This document shows positions 11,699 through 31,122 of a stretch of 35,616 nt of DNA, in pieces (the first letter of the stretch is position 1; the number at the start of each line of letters is the position of its first letter). The stretch is from a virus (taxonomy: Duplodnaviria; Caudoviricetes): positions 1 through 35,616 of IMG/VR virus record IMGVR_UViG_3300014031_000004; one strand, written 5' to 3'. A program made the position numbers and the translations under genes. The notes beneath the pieces are model-generated. The model was not told the origin of the DNA, ran no database searches, and saw nothing but the letters and a program-made list of their open reading frames with translations.

Positions 11699-11699
11699 T

Positions 11700-11731
11700 A
11701 AAAAAACACCCCCACTTGCTAGGCGGGGATG
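11700..11731 (-). terminator. Rho-independent terminator
   Basis: Minus strand CATCCCCGC-CTAGCAA-GTGGGGGTG followed by T7. Confidence 0.7.
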
Positions 11732-11755
11732 CTATCCGTATTCCAACGGCAGCCT

Positions 11756-11971
11756 TTACGGCTGAGATGTCACCTCCTTTCCCCGGCAGAAGCCGAAGGG
11801 AAAGTCAAGCTGGTGAGTAAGTGTCCCTTGCACAGTGAATGGCAGTGGACGCTCTTGAATCTTCTCGAACTGTGACGTGCAGTGGGAGTCACAGAACACT
11901 TTTCCGAAGTGACGGTCACGCGGTTCATGAGGCTCAATCGTCGAGCCGCAATGGTGGCAGTTTACTGTCAT
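11756..11971 (-). CDS. Small Zn-finger protein (CxxC...FCxxxC, TRASH/MYM-like)
   Basis: CHHC...FCDSHC; GAGGA SD upstream; terminator downstream. Confidence 0.65.
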   Translation of the reverse strand: MTVNCHHCGSTIEPHEPRDRHFGKVFCDSHCTSQFEKIQERPLPFTVQGTLTHQLDFPFGFCRGKEVTSQP

Positions 11972-11986
11972 TGAATGTTCCTCAGG

Positions 11987-12127
11987 TTAGGGTTGTCTGG
12001 TGATGGAAGAAAGCTGTCTCTCAATCCACCGAAGGTGCCTTCTGTACGAAAGATCGCTGATGATACCGAGGAGGTACCACTCGTCTTGACTGAACAGTAG
12101 GCCGTCTCTGAATAGTTCAGTGCTCAT
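11987..12127 (-). CDS. 46-aa hypothetical protein (not in ORF track)
   Basis: MSTELFRDGLLFSQDEWYLLGIISDLSYRRHLRWIERQLSSITRQP*, GGAG SD upstream, between promoter and Zn-finger gene. Confidence 0.55.
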   Translation of the reverse strand: MSTELFRDGLLFSQDEWYLLGIISDLSYRRHLRWIERQLSSITRQP

Positions 12128-12158
12128 TTGTGTTGTCAATCTCCAAAGTTACATGAAT

Positions 12159-12168
12159 ATTATACTGC
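12159..12168 (-). promoter_or_regulatory. Leftward -10 element GCAGTATAAT
   Basis: Same 10-mer as in the promoter at 25261-25270; weak -35. Confidence 0.45.
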
Positions 12169-12197
12169 GGCCAGAAGGGAATTATTCTCCGAAGATT

Positions 12198-12206
12198 TGG
12201 TATAAT
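12198..12206 (+). promoter_or_regulatory. Extended -10 promoter TGgTATAAT
   Basis: TGnTATAAT consensus upstream of transglycosylase-like gene and tRNA. Confidence 0.6.
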
Positions 12207-12328
12207 TAAATAGACGACATACCATTGTCAACAACCCAGTCACAGCAAATCAGTCCCCGTTCCTAGTCGGTTCGAAACGGCACCCAGCCAAGGGACTGAG
12301 AGAAATTCAGACAGATCTTATCCAATTC

Positions 12329-16269: not shown

Positions 16270-16812
16270 TTATACCTCGTAGTGGCAGTTGCCGTAAATG
16301 ACCACTAGCTTGGTGACTGAGATACCTGTCTTGTCACCGAACTTCTTCATCATTGAGCCGAAGAATATCATGTCAGGAATGAACTTCTCTACATCCGCAG
16401 ACCTCTGGTACACATACATGTCAAACTCATTCCTGTGAGTCATGACGAACTGCATGTGAGTGAAGCATGGAAGATCTCGATAGAAGTTTGTCCCATTCAT
16501 GACCATCAGCTGCCTGCTGTTTATGCCTTCCTTAGCAGTCTTGGCAGCCTGAGTGAATGTCTTGTACATCCTCTTCCAGTCAGCCTTGAACTTGTCTTCA
16601 GGTTTCTGCTTCTTGATGTAGTCAACTAGCTCAGGATCTTTGAATACCATGAAGTGACCGGGAAGTGCCTTGACATCTCTTCCTGTCCGGTCCTCTTGGT
16701 CAAACCCACTATTGCAGATGTCTACAGTCAGGAGTTCTTTAGCTATTGTAAGCGGCGAGGAACTGTGTGAAGTGCTCGTTGATCGCTTCGGCTCTTTCTT
16801 TGATTTCTTCAT
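16270..16812 (-). CDS. Minimal ThyA-fold protein, putative dCMP-modifying enzyme
   Basis: DRTG, SRQ, LPC, YQRSAD, GNCHY motifs; Asp near the specificity position. Confidence 0.8.
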   Translation of the reverse strand: MKKSKKEPKRSTSTSHSSSPLTIAKELLTVDICNSGFDQEDRTGRDVKALPGHFMVFKDPELVDYIKKQKPEDKFKADWKRMYKTFTQAAKTAKEGINSRQLMVMNGTNFYRDLPCFTHMQFVMTHRNEFDMYVYQRSADVEKFIPDMIFFGSMMKKFGDKTGISVTKLVVIYGNCHYEV

Positions 16813-17794
16813 TTGAGTAGTGGTTAGCTTTTACATCTGCATCATGCTTGTCATAGAGAGTCTTGATAGCATTGAACTGGTCTTCAGTCACCTGAGTAGT
16901 TCCCCAGTAGAACAGGTCCTTGATGGGAGTGTTCGTGAAGTTCATCTGCTCCTTCTTCATCGGATAGAGGAAGTCTCGGTGATGGTAGTCAAACTCATCA
17001 TCCTTCGGAATGTACAGGTTGGTGGACAAGAGGTTAGTCCTGTCTGCGCTTGCCTTCTTCTGGAAGTCGAATGAACCCTTCATCTTAGCAAAGATAGATT
17101 CCATCTCAGGGAATACAGCACACACTGCCTCCTGCATCTTCCTAGCAATCTCATTTATCTCCCATGTCTGGCTACCGTCATCAATCCTCTTCTTGTAGAA
17201 GAACAGTAGAGTTGACAAGTCGATCTTCATGAAGATGAAAGTCTCTAGGTTGTGAGGAGTGATAGTCCTTGCAGCCTGGATTGAGACCTTGAATGAGTCA
17301 TTCATCTGTGCATAGCTCATCTTAGTAGCTAGAGTAGCATCAATGAATCCCTGGAGAAGCATAGGGTCTTGTGCAATGCATTCCTCAACTAGAGCGTCAT
17401 TGTGAGAGAGGAACCTGTCACCTGTGCACTGCTGGCTGAATGTGACACCTATTCTCTGCCTTACTATCTGGTGAGTGTCAATTCGAGTGATTCCAGAGAT
17501 GCGGAAGATGAAGTTGATAGTCTCAAGTCCCAGTCCAAGTGCCTTTCCACCGAACATCTGGTCAAGAGCATGCTCCATCTCCTCATGTGAGGCTCGTGAT
17601 GATTCCATGCCGTCTTCGCTCCATGTAGCCTTGACGAAGTCATACGTTCCCTTCATCATCTCTTCTTTGTCATCATGCTTGATGAGGTCTACCTTGATAG
17701 AATTCCTGTAGTCCTTGAACCTTGTGAGGGGCTTCTGTCCGAATAGTATTCTGAACTGGTGGTGCTTTGGTATCAATTCTGGTATATGCGGCAT
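16739..17794 (-). CDS. thyX: Divergent ThyX-like flavin-dependent thymidylate synthase homologue
   Basis: LE..NFIFRISGITR..THQIVRQR....SQQC, AR...P, KKR, Q.WEI motifs. Confidence 0.75.
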   Translation of the reverse strand: MPHIPELIPKHHQFRILFGQKPLTRFKDYRNSIKVDLIKHDDKEEMMKGTYDFVKATWSEDGMESSRASHEEMEHALDQMFGGKALGLGLETINFIFRISGITRIDTHQIVRQRIGVTFSQQCTGDRFLSHNDALVEECIAQDPMLLQGFIDATLATKMSYAQMNDSFKVSIQAARTITPHNLETFIFMKIDLSTLLFFYKKRIDDGSQTWEINEIARKMQEAVCAVFPEMESIFAKMKGSFDFQKKASADRTNLLSTNLYIPKDDEFDYHHRDFLYPMKKEQMNFTNTPIKDLFYWGTTQVTEDQFNAIKTLYDKHDADVKANHYSNEEIKERAEAINEHFTQFLAAYNS

Positions 17795-17804
17795 TTGCGT
17801 GTTG

Positions 17805-18587
17805 TTAAATTGACAATACTAACAGTCGTGCCTCGACATAGTCGGCCTGATTTTTAAACAAAAAAGGCAATGATACGACTTTATCATAATACACTTTAGG
17901 GAAGAGTTTTTTAAGTCTATCAGTAATTCCTCCTACTACCGCGGGTGAATTGAATTGAAGTAGGTCCAGATTACGCATCTCATTACAATCAATGAAGTCT
18001 ACTGGTATATCTACTATCGGGCTCTTTCCTGCATTTTTATAATGAATCTCAATTGCAAGAAATCGTAATCCTTTCTTTTTTGCATACCCGAAGTCGAATT
18101 CATATTCACTACCTTCACAATCAATCTTCATCATCGTCGGTTGGTATTTATCAATGATGCTCTTAAAACTAATCGTCTCAATGTTTTTAACCTCATAGTA
18201 CCTATCCAATGTATTCTCATGTTTGTATGTACGGCCATACAATGAATTCATACCATGTTTTCCTCTCTTTGACACACGGAACTGTCTAGGTTCTCCATCC
18301 CCGGTTATTGCAATGTTATGGTCTTCAATCTTGCAATTATAATTTTGCTCTTTTAGCAAGCTAAATGCATATTCACCTGGCTCATACATTACAATACACT
18401 TAGGTTTTTTTGATGATATCATACTACTGACAATTCCAATGTTTGCACCGATGTCGATAATGACATCATCTTCAGTAATGTTTTCTATAAAGGGTTCATA
18501 TTCTTTTTCCATTTCCCGTATCTCCTTCATTGACATTACATTTAGGTCAGTCAAGACCTTTCCATACCGGGTTTTTACTTCTTTCAT
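17805..18587 (-). CDS. FkbM-family SAM methyltransferase
   Basis: IIDIGANIG, YEP, MKIDCEGSEY, IEIH motifs. Confidence 0.9.
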   Translation of the reverse strand: MKEVKTRYGKVLTDLNVMSMKEIREMEKEYEPFIENITEDDVIIDIGANIGIVSSMISSKKPKCIVMYEPGEYAFSLLKEQNYNCKIEDHNIAITGDGEPRQFRVSKRGKHGMNSLYGRTYKHENTLDRYYEVKNIETISFKSIIDKYQPTMMKIDCEGSEYEFDFGYAKKKGLRFLAIEIHYKNAGKSPIVDIPVDFIDCNEMRNLDLLQFNSPAVVGGITDRLKKLFPKVYYDKVVSLPFLFKNQADYVEARLLVLSI

Positions 18588-18593
18588 GATGTT

Positions 18594-18791
18594 TTACTTA
18601 ATTATGAACTTTCCCTTCTTGTCTCGCTTCACTCCAGCCTGCTTCAAGTGATATGACACACCGTTTGCAGTCAGTCCGTAAGCATCTCCGATCTGCCTTA
18701 GAGTAGGTGTGTATCCTAGCTTCTTCTGCATCTTGCCGATGTCTGCTACTACGTCCTTGTTAAGCTGTGTGATTGACTTCTTTGTTGACAT
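18594..18791 (-). CDS. Small LexA-DBD-like HTH protein
   Basis: GYTPTLRQIGDAYGLTANGVSYHLK matches LexA N-terminal HTH; no peptidase domain. Confidence 0.75.
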   Translation of the reverse strand: MSTKKSITQLNKDVVADIGKMQKKLGYTPTLRQIGDAYGLTANGVSYHLKQAGVKRDKKGKFIIK

Positions 18792-19197
18792 GTTGGTTTA
18801 TTATTGATGATTTATATAATTCCGGCTCATATGACCCACAGACTACCAGCTTTATTTCCAAACTGGGAAACATCACTGGAAGGTCTTTCTCTAACTGGCT
18901 CTTCATTCTCATCTGGTCATAACCTATGAGAATTGCATCAGGCTTGTATATACGTATCTTTGACCATGGACCCAGTCTAGCATCCCCTCGATACACATGC
19001 CTGACATGATGCCTGACACCTGCAACTCTCTGCTTCATAGTCCTTATCGGAGCATGGCCCTTTAGCATCATGACGATAGAGTCTTGAGCTATGCAAGCCA
19101 TTACCCGACCTCCTTTAGCTAGCTCATGTGCCTTGCTAAACAGGTATCTGTGACCCTCGTGAATTCCATCGAATGTCCCGAAGATCATGACTCTCAT
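18760..19197 (-). CDS. HIGH-family nucleotidyltransferase (RibL-like FAD synthase / cytidylyltransferase)
   Basis: MRVMIFGTFDGIHEGH, AQD..V..LKG, KPD...GYDQ, KSS; start reassigned to ATGA overlap at 19197. Confidence 0.8.
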   Translation of the reverse strand: MRVMIFGTFDGIHEGHRYLFSKAHELAKGGRVMACIAQDSIVMMLKGHAPIRTMKQRVAGVRHHVRHVYRGDARLGPWSKIRIYKPDAILIGYDQMRMKSQLEKDLPVMFPSLEIKLVVCGSYEPELYKSSIINQHVNKEVNHTA

Positions 19198-20132
19198 AGC
19201 TTTGCATTGATTGCCTGATGAATCACATGTTCTGTAGTGACCCCATAAAGCCATTGTGCAAATCGACCGCTGAAGACAATATTCTCATTGGGTGGGCTAT
19301 TGTCCTCATTCTCGAATATCCTTCCCTGCTTTACTGTGAAGATGTCTTGCACAGTCAGATCAGGATACAGTTCTTCAAACTTCTCTCTAGTCATCTCACC
19401 TGTTATCTCAATTGCCCAGACATCTCCCATGTGAGAGATTCTAGAGAATGGGACAGAGTCATCATAATAGCACATCTCATATCTTCCGTCAAAGCAAGGC
19501 GGCTTGTTCTTGACAATGACATTAGTGATAGGAAGGCACCTGAACTCACCCTTCTCTTGGCCGTATGCTTTCCAGAAGAAAGGAGCAGCCATAGTTGAGA
19601 TTATCTTAGAATACGGCTCATGGTGAGTCAGGTCAGACTTGAAGTCTGTCTTATACTGGAGCTCAGCTGAGTCAATCTTAGTCACAAACCCACTGATCGG
19701 ATTGTCATTCTTCTCATTGAGCCTCTTGACAACTTCCTCAAGGTCTACATCTAGGCAGTTCATGTAGTTAGTACCTCCAGTGGATGACATGCTAAGCTCC
19801 TTAGTCTTGGGGACAAAGTCTGTGTCAACTGGCTTGTCCCATGCTGTCATCTTCTTCTGAATCATCATGAGGTTCATGTCAGTTGTCAGGTTGTCATTGA
19901 GCCATCCCTTGTAGTAGTAACCTATGTAACTCTTCTTAGTCTTGATCGGCAGACCCAGATCGACCAGGAGCTTCCTAGTCTCAAAAGTGTCATGGAACCA
20001 CACAAGGTAAGTCTTTGCATAATTACCTCCAGCAATGTCAGGAGAGATGATCTGGAATTCTGGATGATAGTACTTCCATATCAGTCCGCTGATTCCTGAA
20101 CCGATTATATAATTTCCTTTATTTTCTTGCAT
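19194..20132 (-). CDS. FAD-dependent oxidoreductase (UGM/amine-oxidase-like Rossmann fold)
   Basis: IIGSGISGL dinucleotide-binding motif, IISTM, C-terminal GRFAQW. Confidence 0.75.
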   Translation of the reverse strand: MQENKGNYIIGSGISGLIWKYYHPEFQIISPDIAGGNYAKTYLVWFHDTFETRKLLVDLGLPIKTKKSYIGYYYKGWLNDNLTTDMNLMMIQKKMTAWDKPVDTDFVPKTKELSMSSTGGTNYMNCLDVDLEEVVKRLNEKNDNPISGFVTKIDSAELQYKTDFKSDLTHHEPYSKIISTMAAPFFWKAYGQEKGEFRCLPITNVIVKNKPPCFDGRYEMCYYDDSVPFSRISHMGDVWAIEITGEMTREKFEELYPDLTVQDIFTVKQGRIFENEDNSPPNENIVFSGRFAQWLYGVTTEHVIHQAINAKL

Positions 20133-20605
20133 ATCTGCTCAGGTTTTAGGTTTTTAACATCTATCACTGTCCAATTCAGTGCCCTAGCCATAGAGACATA
20201 AGTCTCTGTGACCTTCTTGTGAAACTTAGAATCGACCAGCTTGTCCTCAGCTCTAGGCTTGTTCCTGTATAGGATTACGACCTTCGGCTGGAGAGCTTTC
20301 TCTACCTTTGTCAAGTACTTCAAGTCATAATGCCTGTCAAACACCCAGCTATACACCATGCTGCTAGGGAAACCCCTGTCACAGATGAAGCTAGTGTCTC
20401 TGAACTGTGCAAGAGTCTTGTTGAATATCTCTGAAGCCTCCTCTGGATTCCCTTTGAAGTACTTCGGCATGTCTTTCATCTTGATGACAGGGAGCTTCAA
20501 GTCTCTAGCCAATAGCTTTATGACTGTAGTCTTTCCTACTCTGTCCGGTCCGTCTATGATGAGATGGAGGGGTCTAGTTGATTGCATTTTTAAGATGTTG
20601 CTCAT
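20105..20605 (-). CDS. dNMP (thymidylate-type) kinase
   Basis: IIDGPDRVGKTT P-loop and ICDR motif. Confidence 0.85.
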   Translation of the reverse strand: MSNILKMQSTRPLHLIIDGPDRVGKTTVIKLLARDLKLPVIKMKDMPKYFKGNPEEASEIFNKTLAQFRDTSFICDRGFPSSMVYSWVFDRHYDLKYLTKVEKALQPKVVILYRNKPRAEDKLVDSKFHKKVTETYVSMARALNWTVIDVKNLKPEQICKKIKEII

Positions 20606-21383
20606 ATTCTTCTATGGTGACTTCTCCATCTACAAGTCTTTTAAGTGAATCGACCTTTGTGATGTGGATAGAAGGGAACCGCATGAAGAATTCTTGAGAA
20701 ACCTCATCACCTACTGCAATGATCTTCATGTTGAGATAGTCTTCACCCATCAGCACTTCTAGTTCTTTCTCAAGGAATTCCCACCAGAAGGTCACAAGAT
20801 TCTCATCAACTTCTGTACCCGGTATTGCTTCTTTGACAATAGCAGTCATGTAAGTGTCTTTCATGATTCCAAGATTCTTCAGTACACCTACAAGACCCTT
20901 GACCAACTCTGACCTTTCGTCACCGCCGTATATCTGATGATGTATTATGAAGATGTACTTGGGTGACAGGCTTCCTACTCCAGTCATCTTAGTCTCTCCC
21001 GGGATCTTCAGTATCTCACTGTTGATGACATTCATCTTCTTCATCTTGACCTTTTCTACATTGTGCTTCTGAGTAGCCTCAATAGTATCTACAAGTTCCT
21101 CGATGGAGAACTTCCAGATGTTTATGAAGTTGACAAGGAACAGAATCACATCTGCAAGCTCTTCTTTCACCCTAGTCAAGTCTGCTGTCTTCTGTGACTT
21201 GCTGTACGGATTAGCTACTGAAGGGAATTCCTTTCTCAGTTCTACGATCTCCTCTATCATCTTGAAGAGGTACTTCTCTGACATCTCATTCCTCTCGCTC
21301 TCGAGGATAGTGTCTACAGGATACTTTACCAGCCTCTGGAACTCTTTCTGCTTCTTTGCAATGCTCTTGAATCTCTCGATCAT
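20574..21383 (-). CDS. All-alpha NTP pyrophosphatase (dimeric dUTPase/MazG-like) fused to degenerate UDG-like domain
   Basis: EEIVEL...EELADV motif; C-half follows family-4 UDG pattern (G.G...K.IFI, TYMT.IVK, FL..EL..L, KIIAVG). Confidence 0.7.
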   Translation of the reverse strand: MIERFKSIAKKQKEFQRLVKYPVDTILESERNEMSEKYLFKMIEEIVELRKEFPSVANPYSKSQKTADLTRVKEELADVILFLVNFINIWKFSIEELVDTIEATQKHNVEKVKMKKMNVINSEILKIPGETKMTGVGSLSPKYIFIIHHQIYGGDERSELVKGLVGVLKNLGIMKDTYMTAIVKEAIPGTEVDENLVTFWWEFLEKELEVLMGEDYLNMKIIAVGDEVSQEFFMRFPSIHITKVDSLKRLVDGEVTIEEYEQHLKNAIN

Positions 21384-21622
21384 TAGATTTTGAAGTTACC
21401 CTGGTCTATTAGTTTTAATACTTCTATGAGGCTGTCTCCCCTTACCATGTATCTCTTTCCTGACGGGTTGTCTTTGATGATCGGCTTGAACAGTTCTCTT
21501 CCCTTGTCTGAGCATATCCACCGTATGACGATTGATATAGTAGACACCGGAAGCATCTTGCTATGAGCTATCCAAGTAGCTGAATAGAACTTATCGGGAA
21601 GTATTTCTGGTCTCGAGTTCAT
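21383..21622 (-). CDS. Hypothetical protein, possibly winged-HTH
   Basis: 79 aa, YS..WI...IRWI...GKRYMV pattern. Confidence 0.45.
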   Translation of the reverse strand: MNSRPEILPDKFYSATWIAHSKMLPVSTISIVIRWICSDKGRELFKPIIKDNPSGKRYMVRGDSLIEVLKLIDQGNFKI

Positions 21623-22016
21623 GCTTTAGCTTCATTAGTCTGCTTATAACTTTTGCGTAGCCGTCGATCTTCAGCTCCGTCGTTGACTTCTTTATGAGAC
21701 CCTCACCGACAAGCTGAGCCTTTATGAATTCACGGAACTCATCTTTCTCCTGGCCTCTTATCACAGCGATGTCCTGAATGAGGGCATTCATCCGTCTCCT
21801 GAATCTCTCTGTTGTCTCCTCCATTGTCTCATCTCTGAACTCATTGAGCTCTTTGCTGTCAGATGTGGGGATGAGCATGATGAGGTACTCTTGGCCAGTC
21901 TTGTTCCGGATGACCTGAGAGTACTCATCCATGTCTTGCTCATAGATGTTGAAGGTCAGCAGACCCTCACCGCTCCTAGAGTTGTACCTGTCTAATTGTC
22001 CGGAAAGCAGTATCAT
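21591..22016 (-). CDS. Hypothetical protein
   Basis: Intact ORF in operon. Confidence 0.6.
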   Translation of the reverse strand: MILLSGQLDRYNSRSGEGLLTFNIYEQDMDEYSQVIRNKTGQEYLIMLIPTSDSKELNEFRDETMEETTERFRRRMNALIQDIAVIRGQEKDEFREFIKAQLVGEGLIKKSTTELKIDGYAKVISRLMKLKHELETRNTSR

Positions 22017-22018
22017 GG

Positions 22019-22477
22019 CTAGAACTTGATGTCACCAGGCATTACTCGGTCTTCGTCTGGATCAGTAGCTTTCCATCCTGTTGAGGCCGGAGCAGGAGCG
22101 GCAGCAGGTGCGCCTTCCCATCCAGAGTTAGCAGGAGCCTGTGCAGCTGGAGCAGAAGCAGGAGCTCCAGTCATCTTGCTCTCAATGTTCGGATCGATAG
22201 CAAGGATGAGCCTGTAAAGATATTCCTCTGTGATTCCATTGAGAGTCGGAGTGACGCTTGTCTGTCCCTGACCGTTTGTCCATGACCTGTTCTCAACGTA
22301 CCCTGTGATGTGGTCACCTGCCTTCATGTAGTCCTTTGTAGCCTTCTGGTGTCCATATCCGAGCTCGAGGATAGCATCACCTGTCTCTGCTGTCTTTACA
22401 GAGATCTTAGTCCAGGTTGTGCCGTCCTTCTTTGGTAGTGTGTCCCTCTTTACTGCTGTAACTGTGTATTTTGCCAT
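22019..22477 (-). CDS. ssb: Single-stranded DNA-binding protein
   Basis: OB-like N-terminus (GDHITGYVENRSW), Pro/Ala linker, acidic tail ending DIKF. Confidence 0.65.
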   Translation of the reverse strand: MAKYTVTAVKRDTLPKKDGTTWTKISVKTAETGDAILELGYGHQKATKDYMKAGDHITGYVENRSWTNGQGQTSVTPTLNGITEEYLYRLILAIDPNIESKMTGAPASAPAAQAPANSGWEGAPAAAPAPASTGWKATDPDEDRVMPGDIKF

Positions 22478-22485
22478 GGTTATTG

Positions 22486-23343
22486 TTATTGTTTTAGTGT
22501 CAGGTATTCATCAAACTTCGTGCAGTCACACCACCGGTCATGACCGATTGAAGGCTTGTCGAATTCCCTGTTCCTTATCTTTGCTAATATTGCTTTGACT
22601 TCCTCGAAGAAAGAGCAGATGTCCATCTTGTCATACTCATATGATAAGACTTGTATCCTCCCACCCCCTCTCTTCCTGCCCTTAAGCATCACCACATACG
22701 TCAAGCGTTTGGGTAGCTTGCCGTGCTTGCAGTAATACATGAGGTTGTAGGACCGAGACTGGGGAAGAGCACGTGTCTCAATCTCATCATAAGGAGCTTT
22801 AGAGGTCTTGAACTCAACGATTGAAGTGTCTTCGCTTATTGCATCAAGCCTTCCTGACATTGGGACTTCTAGCTTCTCACCTGTCTCTGGATGGAATACT
22901 GGTATCTTTAGAATCACCTCGAACTTGACTGGGTCAATACCGTGAACAGCTCTCAGTTCTTCTTTCTCGTCCCAGTACTCTTTGATTATCTCAAGACCGT
23001 CTTCATACATCTCTTTGTAGACTTCTGCTGCGGCTTGGGCAGGGTCAGGATACTTCTCAGGCTTCTGCTGGAATTCCCAGATGCTCACATGCTCTGGCTT
23101 GAACCTGTCAATGAACTGCTTCTTGACTATAGCTAGTTCAGCATTCTTCCATCCGTCTTCTGCAGTATACTGCTCATAGATGTTGTCTATGGCTGCATGG
23201 ATTGCTGTACCGAACTCAAGGTGCCTCATTGACTGTGGCAGCTTCAGTCCCAGCCAGATCTTGTAGAAGAAAGACTTGGGACATTTCATGTATTCCATAA
23301 TCATGGAAGGGCTTATTCGGTTGATTCCGAGTTCTCTATTCAT
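22486..23343 (-). CDS. PD-(D/E)XK exonuclease (Cas4/RecB-like)
   Basis: ISPS...Y.KCP, GTAIH, GRLD, EFKTS, Q...Y, WCDC. Confidence 0.85.
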   Translation of the reverse strand: MNRELGINRISPSMIMEYMKCPKSFFYKIWLGLKLPQSMRHLEFGTAIHAAIDNIYEQYTAEDGWKNAELAIVKKQFIDRFKPEHVSIWEFQQKPEKYPDPAQAAAEVYKEMYEDGLEIIKEYWDEKEELRAVHGIDPVKFEVILKIPVFHPETGEKLEVPMSGRLDAISEDTSIVEFKTSKAPYDEIETRALPQSRSYNLMYYCKHGKLPKRLTYVVMLKGRKRGGGRIQVLSYEYDKMDICSFFEEVKAILAKIRNREFDKPSIGHDRWCDCTKFDEYLTLKQ

Positions 23344-24940: not shown

Positions 24941-25156
24941 TTATCTGTCTCCTTCAGTTGCTCCGGTGAAGTCCGGTTCATCCTCAATGGACGGTGCTTC
25001 TTCTACAGTGACTGTGTAGTCCCATAGTTCTTCCTCTAGGAAGTTCTGCTTAGCGATGTCAACTGCCTCGTCCTCATCAGATGCCTCAACGTAGAATTCC
25101 TTTACAGGTCCCACGATGAATACAACTTTGAAGGTCGGCTTTTTCTCTTCGTTCAT
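24941..25156 (-). CDS. Small acidic protein (VEA.DEDEA motif)
   Basis: First gene after leftward promoter; motif common in small phage early proteins. Confidence 0.6.
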   Translation of the reverse strand: MNEEKKPTFKVVFIVGPVKEFYVEASDEDEAVDIAKQNFLEEELWDYTVTVEEAPSIEDEPDFTGATEGDR

Positions 25157-25260
25157 GCAAGTTTGTTATGTTGTTAATGAGATGGCTTGTTTACGATGCC
25201 ATTGAACGCTTCAGTCAGCTTCAAGCTGCGGATCCTGATGATAAAGCATCATCTAGGTAC

Positions 25261-26452: not shown

Positions 26453-26647
26453 ATGCACACAAACAAACCAAAGAAGGACACTATCGTCACTACAAATGTC
26501 CAGAAGAAAGAGTTCAAGTATGCCAAGGGTGCTGTCAACTTAGCATTCGTGCTAAGGACTGACGTAGACAGTGAGATGACAGTTTTCGTTGAGTTGATGA
26601 AAGCTGCAATCAAAGACTTAGAAACAGAGATTAAGAAGCTAAAGTGA
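26453..26647 (+). CDS. Hypothetical protein
   Basis: Intact ORF, GTGA overlap with RNA ligase. Confidence 0.6.
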   Translation: MHTNKPKKDTIVTTNVQKKEFKYAKGAVNLAFVLRTDVDSEMTVFVELMKAAIKDLETEIKKLK

Positions 26648-27915
26648 AGATAGACAAGCCAGCTAACTCAAACTACTGTGCAACTGTAGTTGAGCTGAAA
26701 GCTATCATCCCTCTAGAGAACTGTGAGAATGTAGTTGCAACTCCGATCTTCGGCTTTCAGGCTATAGTGAGCAAAGATGCTAAAGTAGGTGACCGCGGAA
26801 TTGTATTCACTGCTGAGACTCAACTGTCTGATGAGTTCTGCTTCTACAACAACCTATACAGACATGCAGACAAGAACAAAGACGAGGGTCAGAAGGGATA
26901 TATCGAGGACAACAGGAGAGTGAAGGCAATCAAGTTCAGGGGAAACGTGTCTAACTGTCTCTTCCTGTCTCTTGAGTCTCTTAGCTATATAAATGTAGAT
27001 CTTTCCCTCTTAGATGTGGGAGATGAGTTCGACACTCTTTCTGGAAAAGACATCTGCAAGAAATACGTAGTTGAATACAGCGGACGAAAGAGAGAATTCG
27101 TAGCAACTGAGAAGAAGTTCGTTCGAGTAGAAGACAAGCATCTTCCCCAGCACATGGACTCAAGCAACTACTTCAAGTGGTCTGACACCATTGATCCTTC
27201 TTCGACTGTGATAGTGTCTCAGAAGCTTCACGGAACCTCTGTGAGAATCGGACACACTATTGCAAAGAGAAAGATGAAGCTAGTTGAGAGGATTGCTCAG
27301 AAGCTTGGTGCTAGCATCCTCCCACACACGTATGACTACGTCTACGGAAGCAGGAAGGTCATCAAGGATGTGAACAACCCATACCAGAATCACTTCTATG
27401 AGACTGACATCTGGAGTGAGCAGGGAAAGAAGCTCCAGGGACTACTCCCTGAGAACTATCTAGTATACGGAGAACTCATTGGCCACACATCTGACGGAAA
27501 AGAGATCCAGAAGAACTACACTTATGCAATTCCGCAGAGGCAGACTGAGTTGTACATCTACCGGATTGCTATTGTCAACCATCAGGGAAATGTCACTGAC
27601 CTCTCATGGGACCAGGTCATGGAATTCTGCAAGAAGAACGGGCTGAAGCACGTGCCTGAATTATGGAGGGGAAAGAAGAAGGACCTCAAGATTGAGGACT
27701 ACATTGACAAGAGGTTCTTTGAGATGGGATACAGGAATACTCTCTACCTCGGAGTGAATGAAGACATTGTCGACGAGGGAGTCTGCATACGAGTTGATGA
27801 ACTCTCTCCTGTCATCATGAAAGCAAAGTCTCCGAGGTTCTTTGAGCATGAGACTAAGTTACTAGACAAGGGAGAAGTCGATCTAGAGTCTTCCCAATCT
27901 TCAGAAAATGTCTAA
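26644..27915 (+). CDS. RNA ligase (Rnl2/DRB0094-like, N-terminal OB domain)
   Basis: Motifs I KLHGTS, III YGELIG, IV EGVCIR, V KAKS. Confidence 0.85.
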   Translation: MKIDKPANSNYCATVVELKAIIPLENCENVVATPIFGFQAIVSKDAKVGDRGIVFTAETQLSDEFCFYNNLYRHADKNKDEGQKGYIEDNRRVKAIKFRGNVSNCLFLSLESLSYINVDLSLLDVGDEFDTLSGKDICKKYVVEYSGRKREFVATEKKFVRVEDKHLPQHMDSSNYFKWSDTIDPSSTVIVSQKLHGTSVRIGHTIAKRKMKLVERIAQKLGASILPHTYDYVYGSRKVIKDVNNPYQNHFYETDIWSEQGKKLQGLLPENYLVYGELIGHTSDGKEIQKNYTYAIPQRQTELYIYRIAIVNHQGNVTDLSWDQVMEFCKKNGLKHVPELWRGKKKDLKIEDYIDKRFFEMGYRNTLYLGVNEDIVDEGVCIRVDELSPVIMKAKSPRFFEHETKLLDKGEVDLESSQSSENV

Positions 27916-28765
27916 GATGATAATCATGCAGGGTCTTCCTGCATCTGGAAAGACTACTGAAGCTAGGAAGATCATGGAAGCTTCAGGCAACTATGTGAGG
28001 ATAAACAAAGATCTTCTAAGGTCAATGCTTCACTTCAGCAAGTTCACTTTCAAGAATGAAGATGTAACTAGGATTGCTGCCAAGTCACTTGCAAGGTCAT
28101 TCCTCATGACAGGACACTGCATCATCATTGATGATACTAATCTCAATGGAAAGACTTTTCAGACATGGAAGGACTTAGCAATGGAATGCAATGCACCGTT
28201 TGAGGTGAAGAGAGTTGACACGCCGTATGATGAATGCATCAGGAGAGATGCTCTCCGCCCTGACAGTGTGGGAAAGGATGTCATCATGAGAATGGCTATG
28301 CAGAACGACCTCATAGGAGACATCGGACCCGTGGTCCTGTGTGACTTAGATGGGACTCTATGCGACTGTGAGCACCGGAGACACTGGCTTGATGGTGCTA
28401 AGAAGGACTGGAAGGGATTCTTCTCAGAGATGAGCAAGGACCCCGTGAGAGAAGAGGTAAGAGAAATGCTCATGAGTTCTTACTACCTCGGATACAAGAT
28501 CATCTTCGTGTCAGCAAGGCCAGAGGACTACAGGAAAGAGACTGAAGAATGGCTGCTGAAGAACTGGGGTGACAACTACTTTGCTCTTATCATGAGGCCT
28601 TCTGGAGATTCTCGGCCTGACACTATAGTCAAGAAAGAGATGCATGAAAAGTACCTCAAGAAGCTTGACATCCAGTGTGTGTATGATGACAGGCCTTCTA
28701 TCGTCCAGATGTGGAAAGATCTTGGACTCAATGTGACTGATGTCGGAGACGGCAGAGAATTCTAA
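27908..28765 (+). CDS. pseT: Polynucleotide 5'-kinase/3'-phosphatase
   Basis: GLPASGKTT, INKDLLR, IIDDTN kinase; CDLDGTL, SAR, YDDR HAD phosphatase. Confidence 0.92.
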   Translation: MSKMIIMQGLPASGKTTEARKIMEASGNYVRINKDLLRSMLHFSKFTFKNEDVTRIAAKSLARSFLMTGHCIIIDDTNLNGKTFQTWKDLAMECNAPFEVKRVDTPYDECIRRDALRPDSVGKDVIMRMAMQNDLIGDIGPVVLCDLDGTLCDCEHRRHWLDGAKKDWKGFFSEMSKDPVREEVREMLMSSYYLGYKIIFVSARPEDYRKETEEWLLKNWGDNYFALIMRPSGDSRPDTIVKKEMHEKYLKKLDIQCVYDDRPSIVQMWKDLGLNVTDVGDGREF

Positions 28766-29940: not shown

Positions 29941-30138
29941 ATGATTGATATAGACACTCCAGAATCAGAGGAGAAAGCACTGAGAATGCTTGGTGAGAAT
30001 GAGAAGACAATTGACATCATCTTGAAGTACAAGACAAAGAACGGATGGCACATAGTAACGTCACCCTTCAATCCCATGCTAGTAAACTGGCCTGACTGCA
30101 CAGTCGTAGTAGATGGTTTACTTTTGCTAGACTATTAG
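29941..30138 (+). pseudogene. Truncated AEP primase-polymerase-like fragment
   Basis: IDID and TKNGWH motifs in only 65 aa; in-frame stop two codons upstream. Confidence 0.45.
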
Positions 30139-30145
30139 GTATAAT
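30117..30145 (+). promoter_or_regulatory. Sigma70-type promoter for replication initiator
   Basis: TTTACT-17 nt-TATAAT. Confidence 0.75.
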
Positions 30146-30155
30146 ATCTAAGCAG

Positions 30156-30365
30156 TTTGGAGGCAGTCTGGACTAGATTCTCTTTCCGTGAGTCTAGACC
30201 GGAGTGTCCCCAAAGGCACTTTAACAGACTCGTGTATCTATATTCTCACAGGAGGTTTATTGCAAGTTTTCTTTCTGTGAGGATTCAGGTACATGAGAAA
30301 TAACCTTTACGTCCTCCGTTCCACCTGCTCACTCGTAAAGGTAGTGGGTGGGACAGAGGGGTCCC
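30156..30365 (+). ncRNA. Structured cis-regulatory leader (three long hairpins)
   Basis: Stems 30156-30214, 30229-30297, 30313-30359, each with several G-U pairs that only work on the + strand. Confidence 0.7.
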
Positions 30366-30376
30366 TACATCAATGA
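30293..30376 (+). CDS. Putative 27-aa leader peptide coupled to initiator
   Basis: MRNNLYVLRSTCSLVKVVGGTEGSLHQ*; TGA overlaps initiator ATG (ATGA). Confidence 0.45.
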   Translation: MRNNLYVLRSTCSLVKVVGGTEGSLHQ

Positions 30377-31122
30377 CGAAGCTCATCAAGGAAAAAGTTC
30401 CTTTCACAATGGTCTGCAATCAGATACTACAAGACAAGTTCATCTCCCCAGAAGAAAAAGGGATGTATGCTTATCTCTATTCAAAGCCCGAAGGGTGGAA
30501 CTTCTCAGCTGACCGGATATGCCTAGAAAACAACATAACCAAGAAGCCAGTACTGCGGATACTTACCCGGCTTGAAGAACTTGGATATCTAGTCAGGTCA
30601 AAGCTATCCACAGGGAGAGTTGAGTACACTCTGAACCAGAAGCCAAAGGGTCAAAACGGCACTCTGGCCACCGAGGCCAAAGGGTCAAAACGGCACCATG
30701 CCGAATTGACCCCTATAAGTAATACTGTATCTACTACTAATAGTAGTATAAGTAATACTAATACAGAGACGAGCGAGTCGTCTGTTGTGATAAGTTCGAA
30801 TAAGAAGGAAAAGGCAGATGCAAACAAAGAGTTTGGCCCGGGAGAACTCCAGAACATACTTGACGGTTGGTGGAAGGAATGCAATGAGAAGGAGAACTGG
30901 ACCTTTGCCCACATCATCAACATTATTGAGGAAAAGAAAATCAAGATTGAAAATGAAGGTCAGTTGCAGAGAGTTATAGGTAGGAACATTGTCTCTGCCC
31001 GGGCATTGAATTCAGATTATTCATATAGCAGAGTTCTTGAAGCAATGGAGAAAGCAAAGAAGCTTACAGACAACTGGACCCTAGAGACAGTCTTGAAGGT
31101 CTTAACCTCTGGACACAAATGA
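30373..31122 (+). CDS. Phage replication initiator (N-terminal wHTH, replisome organiser-like)
   Basis: FTMV.N.IL.D..IS...KG.YAYL.SKP.GW.FS...L..LEELGYL.R; internal iterons. Confidence 0.85.
   Translation: MTKLIKEKVPFTMVCNQILQDKFISPEEKGMYAYLYSKPEGWNFSADRICLENNITKKPVLRILTRLEELGYLVRSKLSTGRVEYTLNQKPKGQNGTLATEAKGSKRHHAELTPISNTVSTTNSSISNTNTETSESSVVISSNKKEKADANKEFGPGELQNILDGWWKECNEKENWTFAHIINIIEEKKIKIENEGQLQRVIGRNIVSARALNSDYSYSRVLEAMEKAKKLTDNWTLETVLKVLTSGHK
30604..30759. repeat. Probable replication origin: iterons + AT-rich tract
   Basis: GCCAAAGGGTCAAAACGGCAC at 30642-30662 and 30676-30696, inverted 13/16 copy at 30699-30714, TATAAGTAATACT at 30714-30726 and 30747-30759, DnaA-box-like CTATCCACA at 30604-30612. 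Confidence 0.8.

Follow-up and report, generated by a model that had tools for sequence, protein, structure and literature searches.

Results

Genomic context of the initiator gene

The virus record IMGVR_UViG_3300014031_000004, from an uncultured phage, comprises 35,616 nt and was analysed in full; we refer to this whole stretch as the window. Its genes include those for tail proteins, an endolysin, PolB, nucleotide metabolism, RNA ligase/PNK and a terminase. No portal or capsid gene was recognised among them and the contig is therefore considered partial, so that the lack of an integrase in the window, noted in the initial annotation and confirmed here, says little. Among five relatives with the compact leader described below (three of them estimated to be complete), no tyrosine integrase, serine recombinase, ParA or HTH_3 repressor was found, and there is no indication of a prophage or of a phage-plasmid.

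Initiators of the lambda O layout carry an N-terminal helix-turn-helix (HTH) domain, and iteron repeats and an AT-rich tract lie within their gene. The gene at 30373-31122 (+) encodes a 249-aa HTH protein that matches PHROG 428 (replication initiation protein; E 6.5e-10) and, below the cut-off, Pfam HTH_36 (E 6e-4). Structure comparison found no close solved structure and returned weak MarR-type HTH matches, the best with an E-value of 0.014. Inside the gene is a likely replication origin (30642-30772, +), in which a 21-nt sequence occurs twice without change (30642 and 30676) and once more in part and inverted (30700-30712), followed by an AT-rich tract at 30723-30772; exact internal repeats of at least 12 nt are present in 58 of 75 relatives, mostly 260-430 nt into the gene. 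These sequence features suggest that the product is likely a lambda-O-like initiator rather than a plasmid Rep protein. Within the 250 nt that precede the initiator, 31 of the 79 leaders (L004, L108 and L124 are examples) contain words resembling the motif that we take to be the DnaA box, against a background of 0.04 per 250 nt, and none is present in this genome's leader. Judged from these words, host DnaA may regulate the promoter in relatives.

Gene starts in the window are A-rich and poor in Shine-Dalgarno (SD) sequences: nine of 50 genes pass the anti-SD threshold compared with 32% of random sites, and SD-like words precede only five of the 79 initiators of this genome and its relatives. 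Scarcity of SD sequences is a characteristic of Patescibacteria. It is not stated in the accessible portions of PMC7162821 or PMC10746230. Related initiators were found in three Patescibacteria-labelled genomes, one Methanolobus record and one Paracoccaceae record, and initiator matches occur in two of 401 Patescibacteria genomes. On the basis of three of the five genome matches, the SD-poor genes and the sigma70-type boxes, Patescibacteria are the likely hosts.

Three other stretches of the window are of separate interest. A 630-nt GC-rich non-coding stretch 3′ of the endolysin gene (11699-12328) has a folding energy of about -182 to -189 kcal/mol whichever strand is taken, with z near -2.7 in 200-nt windows; it has no Rfam match and is possibly a non-coding RNA. 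Genes for ThyA-like, ThyX, FkbM methyltransferase, cytidylyltransferase, kinase and MazG-like proteins at 16270-23343 (-) make base or sugar modification possible, and an RNA ligase-PNK gene pair lies at 26644-28765 (+).

A structured leader upstream of the initiator gene

A sigma70-like promoter, TTTACT-17-TATAAT, lies at 30117-30145 (+) and places the predicted transcription start near 30151-30153. It had been described as strong. The match to 10 of 12 consensus positions stands, but strength does not follow, as two promoter-type matches were observed where 2.8 were expected in shuffled sequence and the count is thus not above chance. The TATAAT is one of four GnTATAAT sites on the plus strand, three of which lie in non-coding or gene-start stretches. 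The -35 element is overlapped at 30119 by TAnnTTTG, presumably a Bacteroidota-type promoter motif, which is present in 10 of 79 leaders as against 22 with a -10-like word.

Three stems are predicted on the plus strand downstream of the promoter. Stem 1 (30152-30219; -33.4 kcal/mol, z -4.3) is a long irregular hairpin at the predicted 5′ end, stem 2 (30230-30296; -30.6 kcal/mol, z -7.1) covers the start codon of an upstream open reading frame (uORF) with its 3′ foot, and stem 3 (30312-30360; about -28 kcal/mol) is proximal to the initiator start. Positions 30100-30400 have a predicted fold of -111 kcal/mol (z -5.85, matched by none of 100 shuffles), and 30101-30300 (+) is the most stable of 710 windows of 200 nt. 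The reverse strand reaches a z of only -1.79, so that the structure is limited to the plus strand, and stem 3 fails to form under DNA folding parameters. The earlier description of some 220 nt folded into three long G-U-containing stems is therefore borne out as a prediction. As there is no U-tract 3′ of stem 3, this leader lacks a terminator.

The three hairpins had been described together as one leader, but they do not form a conserved unit: no locus fetched for the comparison below has an equivalent of stem 1 or stem 2 (blastn-short, best E 3.7), and no partner for the stem-1 or stem-2 loop pairs above chance. Nine bases of the stem-2 loop (30260-30268) are complementary to 25156-25164, at the start of the first leftward gene (24941-25156, -), probably by chance. 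A single-protein scan gave no close relative of the initiator, and hence no near-identical leader was available for comparison; among sequencing runs, no RNA run contained this stretch, and contigs from three DNA runs of one study, which may include the source of the record itself, contained no variants within the leader.

The 27-codon uORF (30293-30376, +) begins in the 3′ arm of stem 2, 10 nt before the segment that we call X, crosses stem 3 and has a stop codon that overlaps the initiator start (ATGA, 30373), and all of its previously given coordinates were verified. The overlap itself is nearly automatic because the second codon of the initiator begins with A, as it does in 31 of the 50 genes of the window and in 46 of the 79 initiators. 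In the predicted fold the uORF AUG has an unpaired probability of 0.00, being buried in stem 2, and costs 26 kcal/mol to open.

Segment X, ACCTTTACG (30303-30311, +), is unpaired when stem 3 is formed and is flush with the first pair of that stem. It is the exact reverse complement of X′, CGTAAAGGT (30334-30342), and the 9-base complementarity reported initially was confirmed at every position. The stem-3 loop (30332-30342, +) begins with a YUNR U-turn, CUCG (30332-30335), that runs into X′. In the stable fold X and X′ are unpaired with probabilities of 0.84 and 0.69 respectively. Two 9-base inverted pairs of this kind exist in the window and are weak evidence by themselves, so that the significance of the X:X′ match derives from relatives. 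X′ has no other 9-base target in the window, which contains one copy of the X:X′ element. Four viral contigs with the same 9-base pair were considered as relatives of the element and rejected as plain hairpins; exact-pattern scans returned just such hairpins and one unrelated locus.

An alternative hairpin, GGGAC/GTCCC around GAGGGG (30350-30365, +), had been proposed to compete with stem 3 and to sequester an SD-like run. The sequence is present and the hairpin forms only if X:X′ pairing is forced, but it is not a feature of the family, and the sequestration part of the proposal is not upheld, given how poor in SD sequences the phage and its relatives are. GAGGGG itself probably does not function as an SD.

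Conservation and covariation of the X:X′ element

A protein search with the initiator against 1.84 billion representatives gave 487 matches at E≤1e-10, and 187 loci were fetched (alignments A2 and A3). Retention of those with at least 140 bits and removal of 28 near-duplicates and five loci with short flanks left 79, including this genome. A structured leader, defined as a domain of -15 kcal/mol or better that ends at most 60 nt from the start codon, is present in 63 of the 79. In 26 of these 63, this genome among them, the 5′ flank matches the loop over at least seven Watson-Crick pairs, whereas such matches occur in 2.7% of cross-locus pairs and, for the downstream flank (within 49 nt), in one leader of 63. 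The plus strand folds better than its reverse in 24 of the 26 leaders.

Two forms of the leader can be distinguished. This genome has the compact form, which consists of X, a stem of 15-22 bp, a short linker, X′, an A-rich spacer of 6-20 nt and the start codon, and which has no terminator. In the extended form the stems are long and frequently branched, with gaps of up to 12 nt between X and the stem. A run of at least five T residues is found at the 3′ foot of the stem in 10 of the 26 leaders with an X:X′ match. Stem sequences are not conserved among relatives. On a poorly resolved initiator tree both forms take eight changes, a number as low in 21 and 43 of 500 shuffles.

Sixteen compact members were picked by hand. 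X and X′ pair over 7-9 bp. In 15 of the 16, no gap separates X from the stem; the stem extends into X by at most one pair, and X′ is flush with the 3′ arm. A YUNR sequence marks the linker/X′ border in 15 of 16 members compared with the 25% expected given the U. In alignment A6 (MAFFT, 15 members) all eight X:X′ pairs have changed on both sides and 88.7% of cells pair, a score reached by none of 500 shuffles; slid registers give 33-49%. As the 16 and 15 members were selected for pairing, run lengths and pair counts are partly circular. Covariation in homologous leaders, which had been named beforehand as a check, was thus observed for the 9-base pairing, whose letters differ from phage to phage.

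A loose motif detector with 684 off-target matches in 650 kb was replaced by a strict one, tuned after members were known, that was run over 2.67 Mb of redundant sequence on both strands. It gave 17 distinct matches, of which 11 lie 4-17 nt before an initiator, three before another ATG, and three are chance-like. A model of the X:X′ helix only recovered three sites beyond its training set. Two of them, on the reverse strand of L115 and in L336, have the full architecture, long stem included, though the stem is outside the model; the weakest, L338, does not. Compact elements with a code of their own also precede small genes of unknown function (49-68 aa) at L003:4402-4475, L105:3100-3176, L115:1321-1396 (-) and L336:1501-1580. 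The codes differ between the close phages L003 and L004, whose initiators have N-termini that are 88% identical, and within one phage (L003/L003b, L115/L115b). Comparative sequence evidence of this kind indicates that the leader element is a real, selected and uncatalogued RNA element.

A putatively coupled uORF in a subgroup of leaders

Early in the analysis the uORF was dismissed because its ATGA overlap is automatic and no uORF with such an overlap exists among 13 compact relatives. Its spacing overturned this dismissal for a subgroup. Coupled ORFs of 12-60 codons are present in nine of 32 leaders (4.3 expected), and in seven of the 32 (this genome, L093, L104, L001, L115, L109 and L081) an ATG lies 9-10 nt before X with a frame open across the hairpin. 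These seven uORFs have 25-35 codons and stop at -18 to +4 relative to the initiator start. Under the null model, 0.2-0.35 such leaders are expected on average for the 9-10 nt interval, which was set after looking at the data (0 of 400 shuffles), and 0.9-2.0 for a wider interval of 6-20 nt (P≤0.0025). Five of the six relatives fall, with weak support, in a clade with this genome and are therefore not independent; the place of this genome beside the uORF group has support of only 97/77. Positional conservation of the uORF is thus supported for seven leaders, and the other 25, most compact ones included, lack it.

In five of the six relatives a strict -10 box precedes the uORF ATG at a distance of 6-7 nt, compared with 20 of 374 upstream ATGs (5%), and these five uORFs are likely leaderless, judging from their position at the putative transcription start. 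In this genome the promoter is 150 nt further upstream and no -10 box precedes the uORF ATG. The stem-2 loop contains TTGCAA (30260-30265) 33 nt before that ATG, and in relatives a TTGC-type -35 word precedes the uORF ATG by 33-35 nt; here TTGCAA has no recognisable -10 partner and is possibly a decayed promoter.

Discussion

A possible two-state gate in cis

The initial annotation proposed a two-state RNA switch that sets initiator dose. A selected, covarying element before a likely initiator is now established by comparison, and the switching is what we infer. Our preferred reading, which we hold tentatively, is that stem 3 and X would form a two-state translational gate in cis that a uORF can re-open and that limits the probable initiator. 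In prefix folding, X:X′ pairing has a probability of at least 0.98 for transcripts that end at 30340-30348, and the full hairpin takes over from 30350-30352 on. On a growing transcript X would thus pair with X′ first and be displaced as the hairpin zips up. The two states are mutually exclusive in cis because X, with a linker of 0 nt, has no means of bridging the 64-84 angstrom of helix between it and the loop; at most, a partial pseudoknot could combine X:X′ with the top 6-9 pairs of the hairpin. There is precedent for both elements of the scheme, since a pseudoknot is required for repZ translation (PMC9977716, accessible portion) and a kissing loop competes with a terminator during transcription (PMC11611296, accessible portion).

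The finished hairpin of this genome is 7.7 kcal/mol more stable than the X:X′ state (median 12.5 kcal/mol among members) and its 3′ end lies about 12 bases before the AUG. It would sit inside the ribosome footprint and represent the low-translation state, host ribosomes presumably relying not on an SD but on accessible A-rich sequence at which to land. According to the prediction, the nested X:X′ state survives for no more than about 10 further bases of transcription, and initiator would be made in this short interval. In all 16 members less energy is needed to open positions -20 to +13 in the X:X′ state than in the full-hairpin state (medians of 5.0 and 12.8 kcal/mol), as is trivially expected once a long stem is removed, and with the pseudoknot itself beyond ViennaRNA scoring. 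For this genome the values are 12.0 kcal/mol in the X:X′ state and 13.7 kcal/mol with the full hairpin, a difference of only 1.7, because the freed arm refolds with GTCCC into the alternative hairpin. An alternative route could operate in the uORF subgroup, where a ribosome on the uORF would melt the hairpin and re-initiate. Since X occupies positions +11 to +19 of the uORF, its pairing would gate this route as well; stem 2 may here be an additional barrier, to be opened or cleaved before the uORF start becomes available. Folding models of this kind suggest that such a switch would likely limit the output of the starter protein.

Alternative explanations

The same pairing might act between molecules. 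The U-turn loop of a finished leader would then bind X on another transcript of the same phage, with a helix of 8-9 bp stacked flush on the first hairpin at its tip and on the second at its foot, and blockage of the uORF start or of nascent X:X′ would give code-specific negative feedback set by RNA concentration. We regard this self-sensing in trans as somewhat unlikely, though it would account for the geometry of the compact members, in which X and X′ abut the stem and the stem hardly enters X: two molecules are required for both junctions to stack coaxially in full. Exposure of both X and X′ in the stable fold, the location of X within the uORF ribosome footprint and the promotion of first RNA-RNA contacts by YUNR loops (PMC10798244, accessible portion) are consistent with it, as is precedent for a sense RNA acting on its own mRNA in IsrK and P4 CI (accessible portion of PMC4825925). 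The different codes of close phages and of genes within one phage point the same way, but neutral drift of a cis helix would also change codes. Flushness is not universal, given the gaps of the extended form. The helix has 7-9 bp only with no further complementarity for extension, there is no downstream second target of the P4 kind, and the compact form has no terminator to release a small RNA. It is conceivable, if doubtful, that a repressor-free phage counts its own transcripts in this manner, its leaders docking head-to-tail on same-code kin and shutting off the initiator. Such a loop could perhaps, at a similarly low level of confidence, set copy number or exclude superinfecting kin without an antisense gene or protein.

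We consider it rather improbable that the leader is a protein-binding or processing element, to which the initiator or a host factor binds or which RNase III cuts, X:X′ protecting or marking the 5′ end. RNase III cuts long irregular duplexes in phage early RNAs, and stems 1 and 2 are duplexes of that kind; X is frequently close behind the -10 box, and a cut in stem 2 would release the buried uORF start. Stem sequences vary, however, the element precedes unrelated genes, and the U-turn register and uORF spacing would be left unexplained. Control of the classical plasmid type, in which an antisense RNA from the opposite strand acts on the loop together with an SD hairpin and uORF coupling in a plasmid or carrier state, is improbable. 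A YUNR loop with a cis partner follows IncI logic, a uORF recurs in the subgroup, and an integrase was seen neither in the window nor in the five relatives. Against this, promoter-like sites on the minus strand occur in just three of 14 leaders, are weak and are absent here, so that the antisense RNA first envisaged finds no consistent promoter; the G-U-rich stems fold poorly on the reverse strand; and SD-like words are rare before the initiators. With ParA also missing from the five relatives, a lambda-O-like initiator, a partial contig and elements before small non-replication genes, the suggested plasmid-like or carrier state was given up. That the complementarity arose by chance, or reflects a structure formed by single-stranded DNA at the origin, is very improbable: 9-base inverted pairs do arise by chance and the element is near the likely origin, but covariation and enrichment, G-U pairs, strand asymmetry and the failure of stem 3 under DNA parameters have already largely refuted this reading.

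Relation to known systems

The leader resembles IncI repZ, R1 tap, P4 CI/IsrK and guanidine-IV RNAs in differing respects and departs from each in a defining feature. The repY-repZ pseudoknot of IncI plasmids and tap-repA of plasmid R1 were the analogies drawn originally, and they hold for the YUNR loop, the cis partner and the presence of a uORF in a subgroup, but not for the position of the partner, a counter-transcript (none was found) or SD use. As in repY-repZ of the IncI-alpha plasmid ColIb-P9 (PMC9977716, accessible portion), the leader of a replication initiator has a loop that pairs with a short cis partner, probably to act at the translation level, and sequence analysis suggests a coupled leader ORF in seven of 32 leaders. 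Unlike in IncI, the partner is upstream and flush with the stem rather than downstream by the ribosome binding site (a position matched here in one of 63 leaders), no antisense RNA comparable to Inc is evident, and the element also precedes other genes. An IncI plasmid replicon has an SD-led rep, whereas the genome considered here is that of an SD-poor tailed phage with terminase, PolB and a lambda-O-like initiator.

R1 CopA/CopT-tap-repA shares the YUNR recognition loop (PMC10798244, in the portion accessible). Its leader ORF is coupled to the initiator, as the uORF here may be, and pairing beside the leader-ORF start would block that ORF in both; R1 differs in its counter-transcript, there being no Rfam CopA match here and the complement of the loop being on the same strand. 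P4 CI RNA (seqA/seqB/seqC) and Gifsy-1 IsrK likewise have a regulator and an upstream target on one transcript, and according to the accessible text of PMC4825925 P4 controls replication genes and IsrK acts through a coupled uORF, both of which are further likenesses. P1 C4 RNA is Rfam RF01695 (PMC2864571, accessible portion). Unlike P4 CI and P1 C4, this leader has no downstream target (one of 63), no terminator, a single site of 7-9 nt and no Rfam match. The immunity RNAs are processed into small RNAs that bring about premature termination, and in this leader stem 3 is not followed by a U-tract. The guanidine-IV riboswitch (PMC11611296, accessible portion) offers co-transcriptional loop pairing that competes with a full long hairpin, but there two kissing loops are involved whereas X is single-stranded; moreover, our leader has no terminator, no conserved ligand pocket was seen, the genes are unrelated and Rfam gives no match.

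A covarying element of 70 bases that is absent from Rfam is a candidate answer to how initiator is dosed in phages without SD, repressor or integrase. If the cis reading alone is true, replication control by plasmid pseudoknots and leader ORFs would extend to a wide group of likely Patescibacteria phages; if the trans reading is true, the element would be an RNA feedback device of minimal size with orthogonal codes, and would offer phages a new way to exclude superinfection.

An Rfam scan of the window detected one tRNA only, with three chance-level matches around the leader, and in the leaders of 20 relatives no family reached its gathering score or a credible E-value. We found no publication on this element among papers available without subscription. 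Six candidate RNAs upstream of HTH_36 genes are described in the accessible part of Fremin et al. (2023; PMC10690425), and the leader element may overlap with these candidates, which were compared by table rows rather than alignments. About 370 nt upstream of an initiator of the same family, a relative carries a LOOT RNA (RF03000, 77.7 bits) at L126:1487-1609 (-).
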